Shown here: piece by piece, positions 2,988-13,125 of the stretch
Numbering within the stretch: the first letter of the stretch is position 1
Layout: the number at the start of each line of letters is the position of its first letter
Assembly (NCBI GenBank): GCA_018653315.1
Contig: JABIAL010000007.1
Location: 11,348 to 75,347 of the forward strand
Length of the DNA stretch: 64,000 nucleotides
Direction of reading: 5' to 3'
DNA from: a bacterium
GTDB taxonomy: Bacteria > Patescibacteriota > Patescibacteriia > UBA1558 > GWA2-36-10
The notes under the pieces: model-generated
The model's database searches: none
Told to the model about the DNA's origin: nothing
The model's input: the letters and a program-made list of their open reading frames with translations, nothing else
Program-made: the position numbers and the translations under genes

Positions 2988-4075
2988 TGTCCAAAGATTA
3001 TTACAAAATATTAGGCGTAGAAAAAAGTGCTTCGGCTGATGAAATAAAAAAAGCTTTTCGTAAAGTAGCTCATGAACATCATCCTGACAAAAATAATGGT
3101 CAAGATGAAAAGTTCAAAGAAGCCAATGAAGCTTATCAGACTTTGAGTGACAAAAGTAAACGCGCTCAATATGATCAATTTGGCAGTGCTTTTTCTGGTG
3201 GCCAAAGTGGTTTTGGCGGTGGTAATCCATTTGGGCAAGGCTTTGGCCAAGGTGGCGCTCAACAAACCGACTTTGATTTTGACTTAGGAGATATCTTTGG
3301 TAGTTTTTTTGGTGGACAAGGAGGCCAAGGTGGTGCAAGAGCTGGCCGGACTCAACGCGGATCTGATTTAGAAGTGAATTTAGAAATTACTTTGAAAGAA
3401 GCTGTCTTTGGTGTAAGTCACAATGTTTCTTTGCAAAGAAAAAGTCAGTGTCAGCCATGTCAGGGTACAGGTGCCAAAGAGGGTACTTCTTTTGATAAAT
3501 GTCCGACTTGTGATGGTGCCGGCCGAGTGACGACAACTATTTTGGGACAATTCCAGACACAGACTGCTTGTCCAGAATGTAGAGGCCAAGGTAAAAATAT
3601 TAAAGATAAATGTGGCGCTTGTAGTGGTCAAGGTATCACTGTCGAACATCAAGATATAAAAGTAGAGGTACCAGGTGGTATCGACACTGGTCAGTCTATT
3701 CGTCTCAGTGGACAAGGGGACAGTGGTGTTAATGGTGCGTCTGCTGGAGACTTGTATGTCAATATTCTCGTCAAACCTCAAGCTGATTTGGTGCGTGAAG
3801 GTTTTGATCTAATTTCTGAAATCAAAATTCCATTTACCATTGCAGCGATGGGCGGTGAAATAAAAGTAAATACAATAGACGGAAAAGTAAAATTAAAAAT
3901 CCCAACTGGTACTCAGAGTAATAAAAAATTTATTCTTCGCAATAAAGGTGTTACTAAATTGAAAAGCAGAGGACGAGGTGATCAGATTGTGATTATAGTT
4001 GTTGATGTGCCGACAAAACTGTCTAGAAAGCAGAAGAAACTTTTAGAAGAGTTGAGTAAAGAGTTGAATGATTAA
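2987..4075 (+). CDS. dnaJ: co-chaperone DnaJ
   Basis: It has a J domain with HPD (HHPDKN), a Gly/Phe-rich linker, four CxxCxGxG zinc-finger repeats and a C-terminal domain. Its start overlaps the dnaK stop. Confidence 0.95.
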
Positions 4076-4081
4076 AATAAA

Positions 4082-4107
4082 AGGCACCTTGGAAGAGGTG
4101 CTTTTTG
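4082..4107 (+). terminator. intrinsic terminator after dnaJ
   Basis: The GC stem ggcacc...ggtgc is followed by TTTTT immediately after the dnaJ stop. This argues that the next gene starts downstream of it. Confidence 0.6.
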
Positions 4108-4112
4108 TAAAT

Positions 4113-4140
4113 TGCTTGTTTATTTCAGTAGTGCTAAAAT
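4113..4140 (+). promoter_or_regulatory. sigma70-type promoter, copy 1 of a repeated plus-strand promoter cassette
   Basis: Reads TTGCTT-17-TAAAAT inside the conserved string aattgcYtgtttatttcagtRgtgSta(a/g)aat. Two further copies lie at 7376 and 10398. Confidence 0.6.
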
Positions 4141-4172
4141 ATACACAAGTTAATTTAACTCTAAGAAATATA

Positions 4173-4910
4173 ATGTGGTCAAAACAACAAATTGAATATC
4201 ATGAAAAAGCTGCGAAGTTGCTTATAAAAATCAAAGATTTAACATTTAAGCACATTCAAAACAACCGATCAATCTCTGAATATGAGATTCAGCAATTTGT
4301 GTTAGAAAAATTTCAGGAACATAACTTAGAAACAGACAAGTATCCGCCAATAGTTTCATATAACCAAAATTCTGCAACGCCTGAATTTTACCCTAAAAAA
4401 TCATCTGAAAAATTAAAAGATAATACTTTTATCTTAATTGATCTGTGGGCAAAATTAAAAATAAAAAATGCGCCTTTTGCGGATATCACTTGGCTTAGTT
4501 TTTATGGAAAAAAAGTTCCTACAGAGATTCAACAAGTATTTGATGTTGTCGTCACTGCTAGAGATGGAGCTCTAAAGTATATAGAAATACAATTAGAAAA
4601 TAATAAGATTCCAACAGGTAAGGATATTGAAAATGTTGCTTTTGAGATAATTAAAAAAGCCGGATTTGAAAAGAATATTTTACATGAACTGGGACACTCT
4701 TTGGGGATAGAACAAGATCATGGTCCTAAACCAAACTGGATTTATCAGAAAAATAAAAAGAGTCTTTTAAAAAATTTAGGCTACACGATTGAGCCAGGAA
4801 TTTATATTGAAAATAAATTTGGAATCCGTAGTGAAATTGATTTTTATATTTCAAGTGACGATAAATTGATTGTCACTACAGATTTGCAAAAAGAGATTAT
4901 CTTGTTATAA
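4173..4910 (+). CDS. M24 (pita-bread fold) metallopeptidase-like protein, possibly degenerate
   Basis: HELGHSLG...EPGIYIENKFGIRSEIDF resembles the C-terminal metal-ligand region of MetAP/Xaa-Pro peptidases. The track start at 4068 lies upstream of the dnaJ terminator and the promoter, so the internal ATG at 4173 was chosen. Confidence 0.4.
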   Translation: MWSKQQIEYHEKAAKLLIKIKDLTFKHIQNNRSISEYEIQQFVLEKFQEHNLETDKYPPIVSYNQNSATPEFYPKKSSEKLKDNTFILIDLWAKLKIKNAPFADITWLSFYGKKVPTEIQQVFDVVVTARDGALKYIEIQLENNKIPTGKDIENVAFEIIKKAGFEKNILHELGHSLGIEQDHGPKPNWIYQKNKKSLLKNLGYTIEPGIYIENKFGIRSEIDFYISSDDKLIVTTDLQKEIILL

Positions 4911-4961
4911 AATAACCCTACCCCTTTTTGATGCTTCATTAATTTAAATTTAAAATTTTTT

Positions 4962-5426
4962 ATGAACAAAGAATTTAAACCAGAAATTTCTTTTAGCAAA
5001 GACAAGAGTAATTTAGAAATGCTACAAAAATCTTTGGAGTCAGAGGAAATTGATAAGGATATAATTCCAATTCTTGAAAAGTTTTTTTCTCTACCAATTA
5101 CTCCTCACCAAAGTTGTTACGGACACGCAGAAACAAACAAAGAGCCGTATTTAAGCTACGTAGATGACGAAACAACAAATGAGTCGGAACTCAGCATTCA
5201 AAGAAATTTCAAAGAAAAAATTATCGAATTAGTTGCGAGAATAAATCAACAAATCGGTAGTGAGGCTGTAAATATAAGCTTAGAAGAAGTTGATCACAAA
5301 AGAGGACCGAAAGATTATACATTACGATTTGAAATAATTGATAAAAAATCTTTTCTACAAAATGGTAAAAAAATATTAGCTATTATTTGGGACGAATTTT
5401 CTAAATATCTTGATGAGTTGAAATAA
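4962..5426 (+). CDS. hypothetical protein
   Basis: A 154-aa ORF that is acidic/hydrophilic. No motif was recognised. Confidence 0.4.
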   Translation: MNKEFKPEISFSKDKSNLEMLQKSLESEEIDKDIIPILEKFFSLPITPHQSCYGHAETNKEPYLSYVDDETTNESELSIQRNFKEKIIELVARINQQIGSEAVNISLEEVDHKRGPKDYTLRFEIIDKKSFLQNGKKILAIIWDEFSKYLDELK

Positions 5427-5470
5427 AAAAATAAGCCACTCCTTTTTTACACGAATTAATTTAAAATGAA

Positions 5471-5503
5471 AAACCCTCGTCGTATAACACGCGAGGGTTT
5501 TGT
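5471..5503. terminator. bidirectional intrinsic terminator
   Basis: The stem accctcg...cgagggt has an A-run on the 5' side and a T-run on the 3' side. It sits between convergent genes. Confidence 0.6.
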
Positions 5504-5513
5504 GATTGGCTTA

Positions 5514-5864
5514 TTATAAGGTGAAGCCCAGAAAGCTACCACCCCTGATCATTGTAATAACAACAATCAGTATAAACTCGATTAGGCCTATGCCCATGGC
5601 CAGGAATATTCTCCAGTCTCGTTGCTTGACTCCATACAATGTAATGATTGAAAAATTGTATATCAGAAGCACATAGGTTTCAACTGAAATTCCTTCTACT
5701 GAACTTGCGTTGATTGCTTTCAGTAGTTGAGGAAATTGAGCAAGAGGACTGATGAAGACCGTGAGGCCAAATAAAATTTCGTACCACTTGGAATCAAGAA
5801 ACCATGACAGCCGATGATTCCAATAGTTGAAAAACGGTTCGAACAATAGCCGCATGGTATTCAT
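5514..5864 (-). CDS. PQ-loop / SemiSWEET-like small membrane protein
   Basis: Three predicted TM helices with a PQ motif (SPLAQFPQLLKAI) in about 100 aa. AGGAG sits 9 nt upstream of the start. It is probably co-transcribed with the upstream minus-strand gene. Confidence 0.5.
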   Translation of the reverse strand: MNTMRLLFEPFFNYWNHRLSWFLDSKWYEILFGLTVFISPLAQFPQLLKAINASSVEGISVETYVLLIYNFSIITLYGVKQRDWRIFLAMGIGLIEFILIVVITMIRGGSFLGFTL

Positions 5865-5919
5865 GGTTTACATTCTCCTATTTCGTTTTTTTTTGTTTTC
5901 ATTGAGGAGATGTCTCTGC

Positions 5920-6354
5920 TTACTTCCAAGTGAAGTATAACATCGGCATAATGATGACAAGGGATTGGATCGCCATCGACCAGATAGTATAGGCCTTAGG
6001 CAAGTCATTTTTTTTGGCATAATAGAGCGTGCGGAATATAAGCTCTATCGTGATGACAGTGATTAGCATGAGCGCGATAAATGCAGCTATAAAGAAGCGC
6101 TCTGAATTGATTGTAAAAGCTAATATAAAAAATGTAATAGCAATTACGATGAGCACAGAGTCCAATGCAACAAATGCAGTGATGAGAGCGTTAGCTGATG
6201 AGATGCATAGAGCGATTAATACAATAATGAGCGTAACAACGAATGGCGTAAAGATTTCGAATAGCACATTGTCATCTGTAATCTGTCTGGTAATAAAAAA
6301 TGTTGCCAGAGTAATTATTGTTATAATAATTTGCCACCAATTAAGCTTAGACAT
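5920..6354 (-). CDS. hypothetical polytopic membrane protein
   Basis: 144 aa with 4-5 hydrophobic helices. GAGGA lies upstream of the ATG, and a consensus promoter lies at 6408-6436. Confidence 0.5.
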   Translation of the reverse strand: MSKLNWWQIIITIITLATFFITRQITDDNVLFEIFTPFVVTLIIVLIALCISSANALITAFVALDSVLIVIAITFFILAFTINSERFFIAAFIALMLITVITIELIFRTLYYAKKNDLPKAYTIWSMAIQSLVIIMPMLYFTWK

Positions 6355-6407
6355 AATTGTTTCCTCTTACTTAAAATTGTAATGTACTTTGTATATAGTA
6401 ATATAAT

Positions 6408-6436
6408 AATATAGTATGTATTTGCTACTTTGTCAA
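6408..6436 (-). promoter_or_regulatory. sigma70 promoter (minus-strand promoter family, copy A)
   Basis: On the minus strand it reads TTGACA-17-TATATT. Confidence 0.6.
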
Positions 6437-6512
6437 GATTAGGAGAAAAGAAAAAGCCCTCCGTATATTTTTATACGAAGGGTCTTTGATTTTGAAATGA
6501 AGACTTGATCAT

Positions 6513-6818
6513 CTATGCGACGATCATGTTAAATTTCGATCCATGATTTTTGCAAAAGAGCATCTTGATTCCGTGAAAGAATAGCTTAATGCTATTTATC
6601 AATAGCCATACAAGAATAAATGCAATTCCTGAGAGGGGGCCACTAAAAAATATTAGAGCTTCGGCATCATTGCGTTCACGATGATAGCGCTGCCATTGGT
6701 CACTACTTGCACAAGGTCCGGGTTCTCGATCTGGTTGTAGCTTTTTAGCTAACCATAGGCTACACATGCCCATGGTAATCCAGCTAATCACACCGATGGT
6801 TAAGTAAATGTATTCCAT
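6513..6818 (-). CDS. hypothetical small membrane protein
   Basis: 101 aa with 3 TM helices. GGAG lies upstream, and a consensus promoter lies at 6861-6889. Confidence 0.5.
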   Translation of the reverse strand: MEYIYLTIGVISWITMGMCSLWLAKKLQPDREPGPCASSDQWQRYHRERNDAEALIFFSGPLSGIAFILVWLLINSIKLFFHGIKMLFCKNHGSKFNMIVA

Positions 6819-6860
6819 TTTCTTTCTCCAGCTTCGTTAATTGTTTGTGTTATGCTCTGA

Positions 6861-6889
6861 ATTATAGCATATATTATATATTTTGTCAA
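6861..6889 (-). promoter_or_regulatory. sigma70 promoter with extended -10 (copy B)
   Basis: On the minus strand it reads TTGACA-17-(TGc)TATAAT. The roughly 45-bp cassette is almost identical to copy C at 7326. Confidence 0.7.
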
Positions 6890-6938
6890 GGAGAGCAAAA
6901 AAAGCAGGACCACCTTGTGGGGTGACCCTGAGACATGT

Positions 6939-7292
6939 TTACGCTAATGCGTAAGGATGTAATATAACATCGAAACGGTGATGATTATGAATATAACCGA
7001 AGGTAAATTCATTGTTCAAGTCGTTTTTCTTTGTGCAATCAGATTCGTATAATGCGACGGCTAATGCAATTGCTAAGGTGGCGACGCATATGGTGACGAG
7101 TGTGGTGAGTGCAACGTTTGTGTCAGTGGGTTTGTCGAGTGCGACGAATATAACGACGAGTGCGACGGTGAGTATGACGGCGAATACTGAGGACATAATG
7201 TCATCATTTATGGCATTTGTTATAATAAAGACAGCCAAGGTGATGATGATTATTATCAAATACTGCCAAAATAATTTACGCTTCTGATCCAT
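6939..7292 (-). CDS. hypothetical small membrane protein
   Basis: The start is placed at MDQKRKL, with AGGAG upstream. The longer track start at 7325 would lie upstream of the predicted transcription start site of the promoter at 7326-7354. Confidence 0.5.
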   Translation of the reverse strand: MDQKRKLFWQYLIIIIITLAVFIITNAINDDIMSSVFAVILTVALVVIFVALDKPTDTNVALTTLVTICVATLAIALAVALYESDCTKKNDLNNEFTFGYIHNHHRFDVILHPYALA

Positions 7293-7325
7293 CTTTCTTA
7301 CTCCTAGTTTTAAAGAACATATCAT

Positions 7326-7354
7326 ATAATAGCATATATTGTATATTTTGTCAA
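7326..7354 (-). promoter_or_regulatory. sigma70 promoter with extended -10 (copy C)
   Basis: On the minus strand it reads TTGACA-17-(TGc)TATTAT. It is near-identical to copy B and includes the upstream T-rich ...CTCC element. Confidence 0.7.
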
Positions 7355-7375
7355 GGAGGGCAAAAAAAGATGTAA

Positions 7376-7404
7376 TTGCCTGTTTATTTCAGTGATGGTA
7401 GAAT
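7376..7404 (+). promoter_or_regulatory. sigma70 promoter, copy 2 of the plus-strand cassette; likely leaderless
   Basis: Reads TTGCCT-17-TAGAAT. The -10 ends 6 nt before the ATG at 7411. Confidence 0.55.
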
Positions 7405-7410
7405 TATGGT

Positions 7411-7917
7411 ATGAAAAAAATAAGTTTACAAGCTGAGCAAATCATGACAACCAATGATTTTCCAGTGCATAATGAGCAAGTTTTAAAGATATACTTTAAA
7501 ATTGCCAAAGCTAATCCAGAATTGTTACCAGTCACTCCAGTGATACATAAATCACTTGGCTTGTCAGTGTTAGGAGAAAAAGTTCAAAATTTTTTTGAAA
7601 AGAATTCGGAGCTGGAATATATCATGTGTGATGGTAGTCATAAGACCACTGCTTTGACTTTGACTGATAATCCCATCAACGCCATGTTGCTTGAGAGTGA
7701 TAATGATATAAAGGAGTTTAAAGCTTTGATAGACTCTGGAGAAATTTTTAGTTTTGCTTGTAGCGATTCAATAAAAGAGATATTAAAAGATAAGGCAGAG
7801 CATTTTGCTGAAGCTGAATTTTTTCAAACTGTAAAATCTAAGACTGACAGAATGGTTGATGAGAAAGTAATTCCTCAGTATATGATTGATTTTTATAAAA
7901 AAATAAAATTAACATAA
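7411..7917 (+). CDS. ParB/sulfiredoxin-fold (DGQHR-like) domain protein
   Basis: The motif IMCDGSHKTTALTL resembles the DG(Q/S)H(R/K)..A signature of ParB/Srx/DndB-like folds. The protein is 168 aa and lies 5 nt upstream of the next gene. Confidence 0.4.
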   Translation: MKKISLQAEQIMTTNDFPVHNEQVLKIYFKIAKANPELLPVTPVIHKSLGLSVLGEKVQNFFEKNSELEYIMCDGSHKTTALTLTDNPINAMLLESDNDIKEFKALIDSGEIFSFACSDSIKEILKDKAEHFAEAEFFQTVKSKTDRMVDEKVIPQYMIDFYKKIKLT

Positions 7918-7921
7918 AAAT

Positions 7922-8677
7922 ATGACTAAAGATTTAACGAATCAATTTTTTGACATTAATAAATTTCCGGCTGAAGAAGGATTAGTTGTTTTCCCTATAT
8001 CAATGAATCGTATTTCAAATCCATCTCAAGGTGCTCAGATTTATTATGAATATTTAGGGCATTTTAATCCTGATAAAATTGTAAAATCAAATCCCAACTC
8101 AAAAGCTGGCGGAGTTTTTGTTTATACTGATTTTTTATATTTATACTCAGAAGAGCCTGCTTATAAATTAAAATATCGTTTTACGGACTTGATGATCAGC
8201 CACATGAAATCTTTTCAGAATATCTTAAAAAAAGATAAACATGTGGTTCAAGATTCTTTTTCTTACACAACATGGAGCCAACTTTATTTAAATAGTAATT
8301 TTGTTAGTTTTTTTGATAAACTTAAAAATATATATAAAAAAGATAAAGAATTTCAGAAATATTTGAAAGAGGATTTTGATAATCTTAAAAATACTAAATT
8401 AAGTTTTGATGAAAAGCAAATCGATTTTTTCTTAGAAGAACATTTAATGGCGCATTTAATAACTAAGGGACAAGTTTCTCTTTATAATAAATTTATTGAT
8501 GGGCGTGAAAATTGGATATTATTAGCTTATCCAGATAAACCACCGAAAGCCCTGACTTATTTATACCAAAAAGATTTTTTAAAATTAGATAATCCAAAAA
8601 ATGTTTACCAAGACTCCTGGTATGATTTAGAAGAGAAAAAGCTTTATGATCATCATAAGATTAATTTAAATATATGA
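7922..8677 (+). CDS. hypothetical protein, paralog A of a tandemly duplicated family
   Basis: 251 aa starting MTKDLTNQFFDINKFP..., about 55% identical to the ORF at 10450-11217. No family was recognised. Confidence 0.55.
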   Translation: MTKDLTNQFFDINKFPAEEGLVVFPISMNRISNPSQGAQIYYEYLGHFNPDKIVKSNPNSKAGGVFVYTDFLYLYSEEPAYKLKYRFTDLMISHMKSFQNILKKDKHVVQDSFSYTTWSQLYLNSNFVSFFDKLKNIYKKDKEFQKYLKEDFDNLKNTKLSFDEKQIDFFLEEHLMAHLITKGQVSLYNKFIDGRENWILLAYPDKPPKALTYLYQKDFLKLDNPKNVYQDSWYDLEEKKLYDHHKINLNI

Positions 8678-8760
8678 CTAAAGATTTAACGAATCAATTT
8701 TTTGACATTAATAAACTTCCGGCTGAAGAAGGAATGCCTGTTTATTTTGTTTTAAAATAA
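8674..8760 (+). pseudogene. 28-codon N-terminal fragment of the MTKDLTNQFFDINK paralog family
   Basis: Translates to MTKDLTNQFFDINKLPAEEGMPVYFVLK*. It overlaps the previous stop as ATGA. Its 3' end (gaatgcctgtttatttt) is fused to a piece of the plus-strand promoter repeat. Confidence 0.6.
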
Positions 8761-8803
8761 AAACCCCGTCCCTTTCTGTCTAGAAGACAAATTAGGACGA
8801 GGT
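8761..8803. terminator. hairpin between convergent genes (putative bidirectional terminator)
   Basis: The stem cgtcc...ggacg has an internal tgtct-aga-agaca hairpin, with an A-run to the 5' side. Confidence 0.4.
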
Positions 8804-8834
8804 GACGCGCTGCAATGCACGCGGTTAGTGGTTA

Positions 8835-9704
8835 TTAGGATTCAGCAATGTCAAAGAGTGTTTGTAGAACAGCAGCTGGTTCAATGCCTTTGAGTTTGAC
8901 GTCAAAACATAGGAAGCCAGATGTCCAACCATCTTCTATTTTTTCAACTACTTCAGAAAATACCATTAACATAAAATGCAATCCAATCGTCAGATCTTCA
9001 AGGATAAAGTAGGCGCTAGCCTCATGTACTTGAATATCCAAGATTTTATGATGTTGGACTTCTCCTTCATTGTTTGGCTTGAAGGAGATTTCTCTGCCAA
9101 CTAGGTATTTTTTCAACCGAGCTTCCATCATAGCTGGAGTGAGTTCAATTGCATCAGGCTCTGTTTCGGGCATCTTCAGGGGGACTTCCAAGAGGTGTTT
9201 CAGGAGTTTGGCCCAGTTTTTGGCTTGAACAGAGAGGTTTTCCTCCTTGCACCATTCTTTCCGATCCATCTCATTGGCAAGATTGTCAGGTTGAAAATGG
9301 TTAATCCAGTTGCGAGTATTGCTCAGGACAACCTTGGCACCATTAACCATAAATGGTGTTGGCCAGCCCTCACCTTCATTAAAGGCATCGAAGCAAGCCG
9401 AAGCTGGATGTTGGTGATGGTTACTGTCGGAAAATACTGCTACATACTTAAAGCCACGGATACTTGCGAGCAAGGCAATAAAGATACCGACTGGCATTTC
9501 ATCGCGCCAGCGGTGTCGTTCACCTTGCGCTTGCAAGCTAGGCGGCATCAAGAGATCAGCTAGTAAGACATCGAATTCGTGCTCGGACAGGATGAGCTCC
9601 TGGGCTTCATCATAAGTAGATACAACAGTCAGATCGTGTTCTGCTAGTTGAGCTATTGCAGCTTCTCTATGAATAGCATTGTCATCAAGAACTAAGATTT
9701 TCAT
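8835..9704 (-). CDS. response regulator: REC receiver domain plus an uncharacterised C-terminal domain
   Basis: The REC motifs are KILVLDD, ...FDVLLADLLMP (phospho-acceptor Asp) and ...VAVFSDS...GAKVVL. The C-terminal ~150 aa is unknown. The start was taken at MKILVLDD, 2 nt after the upstream stop; the track start is 9746. GC is about 45%, against about 30% in the flanks. Confidence 0.6.
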   Translation of the reverse strand: MKILVLDDNAIHREAAIAQLAEHDLTVVSTYDEAQELILSEHEFDVLLADLLMPPSLQAQGERHRWRDEMPVGIFIALLASIRGFKYVAVFSDSNHHQHPASACFDAFNEGEGWPTPFMVNGAKVVLSNTRNWINHFQPDNLANEMDRKEWCKEENLSVQAKNWAKLLKHLLEVPLKMPETEPDAIELTPAMMEARLKKYLVGREISFKPNNEGEVQHHKILDIQVHEASAYFILEDLTIGLHFMLMVFSEVVEKIEDGWTSGFLCFDVKLKGIEPAAVLQTLFDIAES

Positions 9705-9705
9705 T

Positions 9706-10251
9706 TCATTTTCCATTTCTGTAGGTGACACCAAGCTTGAAGACATCTGTTAAGATTTCTTCGAATGCCTCAAGGCTATCCTGCATAAATTCCAGGCTGC
9801 ACATGAGATCAAAGGCGTCTCCAAGATCGTCTCTGGTGAAAGATTTGAACGCAATTACGTTTTCATCTCCACCGGCAAGCTTGATTTCTGTTTGAACTTT
9901 TTGGGGGGACGTAAATGGCGTAATAAACACATCAATGCTTCCGTCTAATTCGGAAGCAGCTAGATTGAAAGTGTCAGACACCTCTTCGTCCCTCGTTTCT
10001 CTCGTACTCGTTAGCTCTGCCTGAGCTACGGTCAGAATGCGAACATCTACTGCAACTGGGGTTTGCTTAGCTGATCCGATGACAAAGTCAACGTCGAGCC
10101 CTGAAGCAAGAGCTTTTTCACCTGAGAAGGCAATAAGCTTTTTACTGTTGAGCGGATGACCGTTTTCATTGACCCTGATTTTCCACAGTTTTTTGCCGTG
10201 GGCTCCAGGGTCTGATCCGACCACAAAACCTTTTACTCTTTCCTGAGTCAT
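9706..10251 (-). CDS. hypothetical protein (possible N-terminal OB-fold-like region, acidic C-terminus)
   Basis: 181 aa, translationally coupled to the REC gene and with the same high-GC composition. No confident family. Confidence 0.45.
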   Translation of the reverse strand: MTQERVKGFVVGSDPGAHGKKLWKIRVNENGHPLNSKKLIAFSGEKALASGLDVDFVIGSAKQTPVAVDVRILTVAQAELTSTRETRDEEVSDTFNLAASELDGSIDVFITPFTSPQKVQTEIKLAGGDENVIAFKSFTRDDLGDAFDLMCSLEFMQDSLEAFEEILTDVFKLGVTYRNGK

Positions 10252-10397
10252 GATTCTTTCTCCTTTTTCCTTTTTACCTTTTTCCTTTTGGACTACTGCC
10301 TGTAATCCACCTTTTTAAAGAGCTATTCCCAAACCGGGGAATAATCAAAAGTAACATTTTTGTTTAATTTTGTCAATAGTAGCTAAAAATGCTTGAA

Positions 10398-10426
10398 TTG
10401 CCTGTTTATTTCAGTGGTGGTAAAAT
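10398..10426 (+). promoter_or_regulatory. sigma70 promoter, copy 3 of the plus-strand cassette
   Basis: Reads TTGCCT-17-TAAAAT, 24 nt upstream of the ATG at 10450. Confidence 0.6.
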
Positions 10427-10449
10427 ATATGTAATATTAACATAAAAAT

Positions 10450-11217
10450 ATGACTAAAGATTTAACGAATCAATTCTTTGACATTAATAAATTTCCAACT
10501 GAGGAAGGAATGCTTGTTTTTCCTATCTCCATGAGTCGCATTAGCAATGAATCGCAAAACGCTAAGAAATACTGGGAATATGTTAATTTTATCAATCCGA
10601 GCAAAGTCGATAAATCAAAAGCCGAATCAAAGGTTGGAGTAATTTTTATTTATGGAGATTATTTGTATCTGCATTCAGATGAAAAAGCTAGCGTTCTCAA
10701 GAGAAGATATATGGATTTAGTAACTACCCACAGAAATTCTTTTGGAAATTTACTTAAAAGTGACTCCCATTTAATCAATGATGGTTTTTCATATAAAGTT
10801 TGGAATCAATTTTATGTTGACTATGGTAGATTCATTTATTATTTTGAAGAATTAAAAAAAATCTACCAAAAAGATAAAGAATTTCAAAAATACATAAAAG
10901 AAGATTTTGATAATTTAGATAATAAAGATCTTAAGCTTGATGATAACCAGATAAATTTTTTCTTAGAAGAGCACCTGATGCTTCATTTAATTACTAAAGG
11001 ACAGATGAAATTAGAGAATAAATTTATTGATGGGCGTGAAAAGTGGATTTTAATGTCTTACCCAGGCAAGCCACTCAAAGCTCATATTTATTTACATCAA
11101 AAGAATTTTTTCAAATTAGATAATCCAAAAAATGTTTATCAAGATTCGTGGTATGACTTAGAAGGTAAAAAACTTTATGATTATAAAAAAATAGATTTAG
11201 AAACTGTTAAATTATAA
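10450..11217 (+). CDS. hypothetical protein, paralog B of the MTKDLTNQFFDINK family
   Basis: 255 aa, colinear with the ORF at 7922-8677. Confidence 0.55.
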   Translation: MTKDLTNQFFDINKFPTEEGMLVFPISMSRISNESQNAKKYWEYVNFINPSKVDKSKAESKVGVIFIYGDYLYLHSDEKASVLKRRYMDLVTTHRNSFGNLLKSDSHLINDGFSYKVWNQFYVDYGRFIYYFEELKKIYQKDKEFQKYIKEDFDNLDNKDLKLDDNQINFFLEEHLMLHLITKGQMKLENKFIDGREKWILMSYPGKPLKAHIYLHQKNFFKLDNPKNVYQDSWYDLEGKKLYDYKKIDLETVKL

Positions 11218-11231
11218 GAAATAAAATTATT

Positions 11232-11546
11232 ATGGAAATAAAAGAATTACAAAAACAAGCCTCAGAAATTTTTATAAATAATTCTAAAAGAGATGGTATC
11301 AAAGTTGATACAGATTATTTAATTTTAAAATTAACAGAGGAGCTTGGCGAGTTTGTTCAATCTTATATAGTACACGAAAGAAGATGTCGTCCAGCAAAGT
11401 ATTTATCTGCAAAAGAAGCTAAAAGAGAATTATCTAAAGAGCTAGCCGATGTTTTGGGTTTAGTTTTTTCAATTGCAGACAAATGTGATATCGATATCGA
11501 AGAAGCTTTAGTTAAAAAATGGATAACCAAAGAGTGGATTAAATAA
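11232..11546 (+). CDS. MazG-like nucleotide pyrophosphohydrolase (small all-alpha NTP-PPase)
   Basis: Contains LTEELGEF...ELADVLG..., which is the EExGE / ExxD pattern of short MazG-type proteins. It is 104 aa. Confidence 0.5.
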   Translation: MEIKELQKQASEIFINNSKRDGIKVDTDYLILKLTEELGEFVQSYIVHERRCRPAKYLSAKEAKRELSKELADVLGLVFSIADKCDIDIEEALVKKWITKEWIK

Positions 11547-11552
11547 TATAAT

Positions 11553-11822
11553 ATGGAAATAAAATTAATAAAAAAAGACGAAAGAGGCACAAAATATCAA
11601 GCCGAAGGCTTTAAGATTTTTTATAGAGATAAAAATACCATTACCGGCGATAACGCTGAAAATGTAGCAGAGTTAATATACTTCATTACTGGTTCAGCAG
11701 AAATTACTTTAGAAGATAAAACTTGGGTAGTTGAAGCTCCGGCTAAAGTAGAATTTCCCGCCAAAACTTATCATAAAATCAAGGCTTTGACGGACGTAAG
11801 TTTTATTTTATTTGAGAAATAA
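11553..11822 (+). CDS. hypothetical small protein, cupin-like beta-barrel (weak)
   Basis: 89 aa. The residue pattern is compatible with a small cupin. Weak call. Confidence 0.3.
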   Translation: MEIKLIKKDERGTKYQAEGFKIFYRDKNTITGDNAENVAELIYFITGSAEITLEDKTWVVEAPAKVEFPAKTYHKIKALTDVSFILFEK

Positions 11823-12096
11823 AAATATGAATTCAGCAAAAGAACTAGAAAAGCAAATAGAGAAAATAAAAAAACGAAATCAACAAGTAGAGGCAGATAA
11901 GGCTTGGGAAATAAGTTGGACTCGTAGATTTGTGCTTCTTATTTTTACTTATATTGTGATTGTAATCTTTTTCTTTTTTGCTCAATTACCCAACCCATTT
12001 ATAAATGCCATAATAACAGCAGTTGCCTTTGTGATTTCTACATTGTCTGTGCCTTTATTTAAAAAATGGTGGTTAAGTAAATTTTATAGAAAATAA
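11812..12096 (+). CDS. hypothetical small membrane protein
   Basis: 94 aa with a basic N-terminus followed by 2 TM helices. Confidence 0.4.
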   Translation: MRNKNMNSAKELEKQIEKIKKRNQQVEADKAWEISWTRRFVLLIFTYIVIVIFFFFAQLPNPFINAIITAVAFVISTLSVPLFKKWWLSKFYRK

Positions 12097-12109
12097 AATT
12101 AATAAAAAT

Positions 12110-12544
12110 ATGTTATATAATCACACACAAGTTGGGCGTCTAATGGTTACTATTTTATTTATTATCGCTGTTTATTTTGGTTTTATTTTAAAGACAGTAG
12201 AATCTGATAGATCCATTATAACTGTATTAATTTTAGTTTCATTTATTTTACTTTCTTTTGTATCACTTAATGTAACGATTGATGAAAAGCATCTACGAAT
12301 TAAATTTGGTTATGGTATATTTAGAAAACATTTTGCGCTTTCAGAAATAATTTCTGTTAAATCTGTAAAAAATCATTGGTATTATGGCTGGGGCATTAGA
12401 GCATGGTTTTGGCCATATATGCGTATTTTTAATGTATCTGGTTTTGATGCAGTTGAGATCAGAATGAAAGATAGTAAAATATATAGAATAGGTACGGATG
12501 AATCTCAAAAGCTAGAGCTTGCTATTACGGAAGCTATTAAATAA
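12110..12544 (+). CDS. membrane-anchored bacterial PH-domain (bPH_2/YdbT-like) protein
   Basis: Two N-terminal TM helices are followed by a ~70-aa domain (HLRIKFGYGIFRKHFALSEI...IYRIGTDESQ) resembling bPH_2. Confidence 0.4.
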   Translation: MLYNHTQVGRLMVTILFIIAVYFGFILKTVESDRSIITVLILVSFILLSFVSLNVTIDEKHLRIKFGYGIFRKHFALSEIISVKSVKNHWYYGWGIRAWFWPYMRIFNVSGFDAVEIRMKDSKIYRIGTDESQKLELAITEAIK

Positions 12545-12614
12545 AATTAATAAAAAATAGTAAAAAAAGAGGGAGCTTAGTATTTCTACTAAACCCCCAA
12601 ATGACAGGTGGTTA

Positions 12615-12857
12615 TTAACCGCGACTTGAAGTCACGATTTTCGGTATGGCATACCAGCAAATGAATGCCATGATTGCTGCCGTGATTATTCCGGCTGGAA
12701 TAGCTTTAACGAAATACTGAAATTCCGTAGCCAGGCTTACTCCACTAAATTCCCAAGACATAGCAATATAGTTGATGTCGTGGAAGAGTGGTGTAATAAG
12801 AGCAGTGCACAGAGCTATCCAAATAATTCCGATTAGTGTAATTTTTAAAGTTTTCAT
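12615..12857 (-). CDS. hypothetical small membrane protein
   Basis: 80 aa with 2 TM helices. GAGGAG lies upstream, and a consensus promoter lies at 12907-12935. Confidence 0.5.
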   Translation of the reverse strand: MKTLKITLIGIIWIALCTALITPLFHDINYIAMSWEFSGVSLATEFQYFVKAIPAGIITAAIMAFICWYAIPKIVTSSRG

Positions 12858-12906
12858 GAAAAGAACTCCTCGTTACTTGAAATATTGGTTAAACTTGAAT
12901 AATGTC

Positions 12907-12935
12907 ATTATAGCATATATTCACTATTCTGTCAA
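12907..12935 (-). promoter_or_regulatory. sigma70 promoter with extended -10 (copy D)
   Basis: On the minus strand it reads TTGACA-17-(TGc)TATAAT. Confidence 0.65.
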
Positions 12936-12968
12936 TAGTAATAAATATAGTTGAAAGTAAGTAAAATC

Positions 12969-12997
12969 TTGACTATTTAAGCATTTTAGTCTATAAT
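12969..12997 (+). promoter_or_regulatory. consensus sigma70 promoter for the tRNA-Thr/rpmG/tRNA-Trp transcript
   Basis: Reads TTGACT-17-TATAAT, about 125 nt upstream of tRNA-Thr. Confidence 0.6.
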
Positions 12998-13125
12998 CTA
13001 CTTTGTAATTTTAAATACTGCCGGAATAGCTCCCTTCGACTCACTTCGTTCACTCAGGGCAGGCAGTTGAAATTATAAGCTGCGTACAGCCAAACAAACA
13101 GCGGTTTAAACTTCATTTTTTATCA

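Follow-up and report, generated by a model that had tools for sequence, protein, structure and literature searches.

The window analysed here, a 64,000-nt stretch of contig JABIAL010000007.1 (positions 11,348 to 75,347) from a patescibacterial genome, contains two genes of about 250 codons each, termed paralog A and paralog B, which are probably remote relatives of cyclodipeptide synthases (CDPSs). Paralog A is directly preceded by a gene that we call the DGSHK gene, after a motif of its product. To our knowledge, no enzymes other than CDPSs channel aminoacyl-tRNAs into diketopiperazine natural products. We consider it likely that both paralogs belong to a small and unannotated family found among bacteria of the Candidate Phyla Radiation (CPR) and archaea of the DPANN group, that the nearest relatives of this family are the CDPSs of the XYP subfamily, that its members would act through acyl-enzyme chemistry, and that the DGSHK gene is independent of them.

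Neither paralog A, nor paralog B, nor the DGSHK protein has a match in Pfam, NCBIfam, PADLOC or PHROGs. A sequence-only reading of this DNA had stated that the two open reading frames (ORFs) match no recognised family, and for curated hidden Markov model (HMM) libraries this is true; however, structure prediction and profile-profile comparison both reveal a remote relationship to CDPSs. The 39 best PDB structure matches of an AlphaFold2 (AF2) model of the 251-aa protein (pLDDT 92.3, pTM 0.90) are all CDPSs (Foldseek E 2.6e-5 to 1.7e-3, TM up to 0.64), and tyrosyl-tRNA synthetase (TyrRS) comes next. Likewise, the two best matches in the viral structure library BFVD are CDPSs, then TyrRS and TrpRS, and the Rossmann fold of the model resembles that of class-Ic aminoacyl-tRNA synthetases (aaRSs). 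When the family alignment was compared with nine XYP CDPSs using HHalign, a probability of 95.6% was obtained (E 1.2e-8, 173 columns), a link that is seen only with a broadened 49-member alignment including distant members and with XYP sequences. These nine experimentally tested enzymes come from the supplementary material of Gondry et al. 2018 (PMC5816076), in which canonical CDPSs of CPR bacteria appear as well. The XYP profile scores paralog A with 22.3 bits. In the opposite direction, no canonical CDPS exceeds 13 bits with the family HMM, and the highest score is that of the CPR enzyme CDPS 90; thus the family appears to form a separate clade and does not consist of overlooked canonical CDPSs. 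A single one of the 49 broad family members, a distant one, matches the Pfam CDPS model (E 5.4e-4), on which canonical XYP CDPSs reach 32-33 bits at a cut-off of 27. A profile search of the family alignment against PDB sequences returned noise only, e.g. Lon protease with E 0.5.

Six residues are conserved in CDPSs, namely G35, S37, Y178, E182, P184 and Y202 (Sauguet et al. 2011, PMC3105412). In AlbC, the exchanges S37A, E182A and E182Q abolish activity, Y178F and G35A leave little of it, and about 11% is retained in Y202F (PMC3105412); Y202 takes part in cyclisation (PMC5935735). The counterpart of S37 in the family is S27, located after the strand 20-26 and kept in 47/49 and 40/40 sequences of the two alignments used. 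E182 of helix alpha7, strictly conserved in CDPSs, is kept as E173 (48/49), and the Tyr-Pro pair of the XYP enzymes (Y202-P203 in AlbC numbering) as Y203-P204 (48/49 and 40/49). In contrast, G35 of strand beta3 is not kept and corresponds to P25 (43/49 and 34/40; Gly in few), Y178 is replaced by F169 (47/49 and 39/40), and the position of P184, which is L175 in paralog A, is not conserved at all (V 17, L 14, A 9 of 49). HHalign also pairs D70 with the Asp and W118 with the Trp of XYP enzymes. Hence the putative nucleophilic serine, the glutamate and the Tyr-Pro pair of cyclisation are retained, whereas the whole family carries other residues at the two positions that would determine how the amino group of the first aminoacyl moiety is bound. 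With Phe169 in place of Tyr178 and Pro25 in place of Gly35, the alpha-amino group of the first substrate must be bound in a different way, and something other than a standard cyclodipeptide may be produced.

A reaction path can be proposed from these equivalences. A Lys/His-rich helix comprising residues 80-104 takes, as judged from alignment and secondary structure only, the position of the basic helix with which CDPSs bind tRNA, and would hold an aminoacyl-tRNA by its acceptor end. The aminoacyl group would then be passed to Ser27 to yield an acyl-enzyme, positioned by Glu173. A second aminoacyl group would be accepted and the product, probably a 2,5-diketopiperazine, released, with Tyr203 as candidate proton relay.

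The family is small. A database search gave 62 close homologs, all of them unnamed or 'hypothetical' and encoded by CPR bacteria or DPANN archaea; among 1.84 billion representative proteins, an exhaustive search with the profile gave only 238 clusters. In contigs from one genome per species, 73 loci were collected with a closer 14-member alignment: about 45 are labelled Patescibacteria, 14 DPANN and 8 unclassified, while 6 carry other, unverified labels. Contigs labelled as lying outside CPR and DPANN, again with unverified labels, are L047 (127 kb, Micavibrio), L018 (Flavobacteriaceae), and L021 and L023 (both Bdellovibrionales); they may stem from mis-binning or from true spread of the family. 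An alignment of 40 family sequences comprises 18 invariant columns, with a mean column identity of 52%. The gene neighbourhoods are highly variable, and neither BLAST clustering nor Pfam tallies of the immediate neighbours revealed a conserved neighbour of the CDPS-like gene. Weakly recurrent are class I aaRS, SET, NUDIX and ClpB genes. A class I aaRS gene lies directly upstream on the same strand at several loci: it is of the Ile/Leu/Val type in three CPR loci and encodes TyrRS in four metagenome-assembled genomes (MAGs) of the DPANN groups Pacearchaeota and Nanoarchaeia (L056:9003-9968, L063:8938-9969, L067:8847-9932, L057:8881-9990), in two of which it overlaps the CDPS-like gene by 3-10 nt. 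A SET-domain gene follows directly downstream in 4/68 loci (L039:10737-11234 and three others), and two representative proteins, P0226 and P0227, carry a SET domain (protein lysine methyltransferase) attached C-terminally to their CDPS-like part.

Paralogs A and B are colinear, as the sequence-only reading had noted, yet its figure of about 55% identity is too low: BLASTP aligns them end to end with one gap at 64% identity over 250 residues (E 1e-119), and the nucleotide identity is 71%. Paralog B is nearer to orthologs elsewhere (71% to P0008) than to paralog A, which is placed by neighbour joining outside the clade that includes B. The duplication is old rather than recent, and a tandem duplicate of the CDPS-like gene was found at no other of the collected loci. 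The first 20 codons of A and B are 93% identical compared with 71% overall; however, identical-codon use is high throughout this AT-rich genome, so that a 5' gene-conversion tract is suggestive only. In a related population with 88-92% nucleotide identity (L165:1-1142), the arrangement of A and B is different. There, a 94-aa membrane-protein gene lies directly 5' of the A-type copy, and the A-type 5' part continues, out of frame, into a 3' end of the B type, after which comes an inverted A fragment. Since this contig measures only 1.1 kb, it might be mis-assembled.

The DGSHK protein belongs to a different family, with at least 137 homologs in CPR bacteria and DPANN archaea, none of which is annotated. 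Within the family alignment D74, G75, H77 and K78 are invariant and S76 is nearly so, and the AF2 model (pLDDT 92.7) places the motif at a strand-to-helix turn. The sequence-only reading had described this motif as DGQHR/ParB-sulfiredoxin-like. The best Foldseek matches, ParB, Noc, PadC and sulfiredoxin, are sub-significant (E 0.06-1, probability 0.4-0.87, TM 0.3-0.6), the ParBc Pfam model did not match any of 41 family members at E<=10, and the PDB sequence search did not reveal such a match either. Furthermore, compared with ParB/Srx and DGQHR-type proteins, whose nucleotide-binding motif reads (D/G)G-x-H-R, the DGSHK protein carries Lys in place of the motif Arg and lacks a helix-turn-helix or other DNA-binding domain. 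A ParB/Srx fold is thus plausible but weakly supported. Genes of this family have neighbours enriched for SAM methyltransferases, APH phosphotransferases, GNATs and small kinases; the closest relatives (75% and 69% identity) lie between a PBP gene and greA, or after a MazG-like gene. In the relatives with 69% identity the MazG-like gene stands directly upstream of the DGSHK gene (L075:5653-6525, L076:2624-3496); in the window, such a gene comes after paralog B.

Several observations weigh against assigning a CDPS reaction to the family. At E<=1, A and B match neither Pfam PF16715 nor the NCBIfam CDPS models, and the HHalign comparison of the family profile with four CDPSs of the NYH subfamily is not significant (probability 0.09%). 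The residue equivalences come from profile alignment and the order of secondary-structure elements, and catalytic activity is a prediction for every family member, made from fold and conserved residues. Genes for CDPS tailoring enzymes (cyclodipeptide oxidase, P450) are absent among the family's neighbours. Y178F and G35A render AlbC poorly active, and both positions are natively changed in the family, which argues against the standard CDPS reaction. One might envision that a fold like that of CDPSs and class-Ic aaRSs serves a different chemistry: either an aminoacyl or other acyl group would be moved from tRNA onto another acceptor, for instance a protein, an amine or a lipid, or the protein would bind tRNA only. 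This would explain why Phe169 and Pro25 stand family-wide where canonical CDPSs have the two residues that place the alpha-amino group, and why D11, Y68, Y73, H94, D141, D151, N227 and Y234 are additionally invariant. The lack of tailoring genes nearby would fit as well, as would a mean column identity of 52% across two domains of life, while the pockets of canonical CDPSs vary. Even a protein substrate is hinted at by the SET fusion of two representatives and by the SET genes directly downstream in 4/68 loci. However, Ser, Glu and Tyr-Pro, all of which are kept, are the minimal set for the ping-pong mechanism of CDPSs, and the closest canonical relative by profile is an XYP CDPS from the CPR that makes cHP and cHE. 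Consequently, we regard this alternative as rather unlikely, and a cyclodipeptide as the most likely product on the grounds of model and alignment, although there is a real chance of other chemistry.

Other explanations concern the locus rather than the family. Paralog A could be a duplicate that is degenerating and will eventually be lost, with B as the only functional copy. It departs at six positions that are otherwise at least 85% conserved (N96K, I109V, Y178H, G205D, N218D, F220L), one of them, G205D, beside the Tyr-Pro motif, compared with one such position in B; its C-terminus is four residues shorter and abuts the remnant of another family copy, and the A-type copy of the related population appears disrupted. 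This latter evidence comes from the 1.1-kb contig L165, perhaps mis-assembled across repeats, and a comparison with the A-type ortholog in L165 indicates strong purifying selection on A (dN/dS 0.07, dS 0.54, 146 codons). Since A also has an intact reading frame in eight assemblies and keeps all candidate catalytic residues (S27, F169, E172-E173, Y203-P204), its decay appears unlikely. Much less probable still is that the DGSHK and 251-aa proteins form a two-gene module for DNA modification or defence, as would fit the sequence-only reading, which had taken them for partners in such a context. In this genome both genes indeed share a strand and a single promoter, with 4 nt between them, and the DGSHK motif is invariant, with ParB, Noc, PadC and sulfiredoxin as best structure matches. 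Yet no DGSHK-family gene occurs within 10 kb of a CDPS-like gene in any of the 73 loci, and no CDPS-like gene in the flanks of DGSHK-family genes at 83 loci (574 kb of flank); hence the operon with A is lineage-specific. Paralog B lacks such a neighbour, the 251-aa protein is CDPS-like and neither a nuclease nor a modification enzyme, and the ParB fold remains sub-significant (E>=0.06) without a ParBc match. PADLOC does not recognise either protein, nor are there defence genes among the neighbours of either family, which are variable and largely housekeeping or small-molecule-modifying. The DGSHK gene is thus an independent accessory gene and a chance neighbour of A. Finally, the 28-codon remnant of a third copy, described before as directly following paralog A, is indeed present and overlaps its TGA. 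The three 5' ends, nearly identical over about 60-90 nt, might in principle confuse an assembler, so that remnant and junction might be an assembly artefact, which the sequence-only reading itself had considered. However, eight independently assembled contigs span 8674-8800 colinearly with 0-1 mismatch and differ by single-nucleotide polymorphisms elsewhere. They were built from different samples with assemblers of two types (MEGAHIT k141, SPAdes NODE), and one of them is the GenBank MAG contig JABHWK010000036.1. An artefact is therefore hardly credible.

If the family is indeed related to CDPSs as we propose, it would represent a sister clade that is strongly conserved, lacks annotation and differs from canonical CDPSs in two active-site residues. 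A 2026 review recognises just two CDPS subfamilies, NYH and XYP (PMC12945691). Our literature search revealed no paper that joins cyclodipeptide synthases with the Candidate Phyla Radiation or DPANN, or with a SET-domain partner; where papers name both 'cyclodipeptide synthase' and Patescibacteria, these are separate items in community or gene-cluster surveys. If true, the finding would widen the sequence space for CDPS mining or point to a new tRNA-dependent reaction. The restriction to CPR and DPANN matters, given their minimal metabolism and host dependence. Because bacterial and archaeal members are highly identical, the family is a candidate for a trait that both groups share in connection with symbiosis, and it illustrates gene exchange between domains. 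As a tentative suggestion, which we would not yet call probable, the family could be a third CDPS-like clade that is limited to ultra-small CPR/DPANN episymbionts and was exchanged between the domains. Its rewired first-substrate site and an invariant acidic second pocket (D141, D151) would then serve one specific, non-canonical reaction dependent on aminoacyl-tRNA. Such a reaction could yield an unusual diketopiperazine or aminoacylate an acceptor other than tRNA, in view of the SET-domain fusions possibly a protein, and might play a role in the interaction of symbiont and host.

The features of the locus are compiled in the table below, with all coordinates given as positions in the window. 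The ORF map of 7411-11217 was rechecked and agrees with the ORF coordinates given earlier; merely the spacer between the DGSHK stop codon and the ATG of paralog A comprises 4 nt instead of 5 nt.

Features of the CDPS-like locus and its surroundings
Feature	Position	Strand	Basis and remarks
Third promoter cassette, degenerate	4110-4140		3 mismatches; inside 5' end of M24-peptidase ORF 4068-4910
Promoter cassette P1 (predicted)	7374-7404	+	-35 TTGCCT (7376-7381), 17-nt spacer with TG, -10 TAGAAT (7399-7404)
DGSHK gene, 168 aa	7411-7917	+	ORF map
Paralog A, 251 aa	7922-8677	+	ORF map; more divergent CDPS-like copy
Remnant, 28 codons	8674-8760	+	ORF map, repeat family, sequence; 5' end of a further family copy
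13-nt exact match to -35 part of promoter cassette	8735-8747	+	TGCCTGTTTATTT; in remnant
Intrinsic terminator of GC-rich cassette	8753-8803	-	hairpin 8763-8803, then UUUUUAUUUU at 8753-8762
GC-rich two-gene cassette	genes 8835-10251 (GC-rich cassette 8753-10350)	-	between remnant and P2/paralog B
303-aa protein	8835-9746	-	divergent receiver-like N-terminal domain; weak Response_reg match
181-aa protein	9706-10251	-	function unassigned; no informative match
Promoter cassette P2 (predicted)	10396-10426	+	-35 TTGCCT, -10 TAAAAT; 24 nt 5' of paralog B
Paralog B, 255 aa	10450-11217	+	ORF map; orthodox CDPS-like copy
MazG-like gene	11232-11546		downstream of paralog B
Cupin-like gene	11553-11822		downstream of paralog B, after MazG-like gene

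Promoters were searched by a sigma-70-like scan and by counting cassette matches. A 31-nt promoter-like cassette occurs three times in the window, while no occurrence is expected by chance. The regions of P1 and P2 align over about 90 nt, and A and B would each stand behind one copy, P1 being predicted to serve the DGSHK gene together with paralog A. Since the -10 box of P1 ends only 6 nt 5' of the DGSHK gene's ATG, the DGSHK-A transcript may be leaderless. Neither paralog A nor paralog B is preceded by a Shine-Dalgarno sequence. Given the internal copy of the cassette, the true start of the M24-peptidase gene may lie further downstream of 4068. An origin of the promoter cassette from the 5' coding region of a family gene was considered and rejected, as the 5' ends of A and B align with it no better than shuffles (p 0.4-0.8); of the three 5' ends, that of the remnant alone aligns above shuffles, and weakly.

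The 5' part of the remnant belongs to a repeat of 89 nt which the repeat finder located in three copies (7903-7991, 8655-8743 and 10431-10519), each comprising a 19-nt leader and the first 70 nt of coding sequence. Its start overlaps the stop codon of paralog A (ATGA). Over the first 59 nt it differs from the 5' end of paralog A at one position, then becomes B-like (GGAATGC), and its homology to the family stops at about 8747. The sequence-only reading had further seen a fusion of the remnant to a fragment of the promoter cassette. The exact match behind this claim covers only 13 nt (local-alignment p ~0.005-0.008 against shuffles), and 12 of these also fit the coding sequence of paralog B, so that the fusion is possible but weakly supported. 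The match is possibly a microhomology or a trace of the junction.

Next to the remnant stands the terminator of the GC-rich cassette, and the stop codon of the remnant lies inside the complement of the terminator's U-tract. The predicted RNA fold (-32.4 kcal/mol, z -5.6) was equalled in stability by none of 200 shuffles. The terminator is the left edge of the inserted cassette, which interrupts the paralog array and has a GC content of 45-49% compared with 24-31% in its flanks. The N-terminal 57% of its 303-aa protein matches a CPR family of ~220-aa 'CheY-like' proteins, whereas the C-terminal 130 aa are unique. For the 181-aa protein, curated libraries gave no informative match, and no phage match was found.

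The whole islet, about 4960-13100, is bounded by hsp20-dnaK-dnaJ-M24 on one side and tRNA-Thr/tRNA-Trp on the other. That this is an accessory region with real gene turnover, as had been proposed, is supported by the remnant, the inserted GC-rich cassette, the duplicated promoter and the rearranged A and B copies of the related population. The islet would once have carried at least three family copies, one of which was cut down to 28 codons beside the two-gene cassette. Duplication, remnant and inserted cassette are as such an ordinary case of accessory-islet turnover. At 5920-7369, the minus strand encodes three small membrane proteins of 144, 101 and 128 aa, the first and last of which are weak paralogs (E 2e-6). 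Two of the three genes are preceded by 44-nt repeats of 93% identity, both holding near-perfect sigma-70 promoters (TTGACA, 17 nt, TATAAT; 6889-6861 and 7354-7326).

Compared with known systems, the family shares its general architecture with three groups of enzymes. The catalytic domain of archaeal/eukaryotic-type TyrRS (class Ic) forms the second tier of structure matches (E 4e-3); however, the family alignment contains neither a HIGH nor a KMSKS motif, and its proteins lack an anticodon-binding domain and are half the size of TyrRS. CDPSs of the NYH subfamily (AlbC 3oqv, Rv2275 2x9q, YvmC 3oqh) have the same fold, AlbC being the top Foldseek match (E 2.6e-5), and their Ser, Glu and Tyr positions have counterparts in the family. 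Yet the NYH signature residues Asn40 and His203 are missing, and Pro follows Tyr, as it does in XYP enzymes. From these latter, the family differs by the exchanges Tyr178 to Phe, Gly35 to Pro and Pro184 to Leu, the Pro184 column being variable in the 49-member alignment, and by the extra invariant motifs D11-I-N-K at the N-terminus and N227...Y234-D-L at the C-terminus. Its conservation across taxa is also much higher than that of canonical CDPSs. Nevertheless, the XYP enzymes are the closest match overall. CDPS 90 of Parcubacteria bacterium RAAC4_OD1_1 (ETB63777.1), the canonical enzyme nearest by profile score, Nbra-CDPS (5mlq) and Fdum-CDPS (5ocd) have the fold in common with the family (Foldseek E 1e-4 to 1e-5, TM 0.55-0.64). 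Family and XYP enzymes are of similar length (~230-250 aa), and both are present in CPR genomes. In colinear order, they share a Ser after the first strand, an Asp after the second, a Trp, [YF]-x-L-E-E on a long helix and, after the last core strand, Tyr-Pro(-Gly-Lys).

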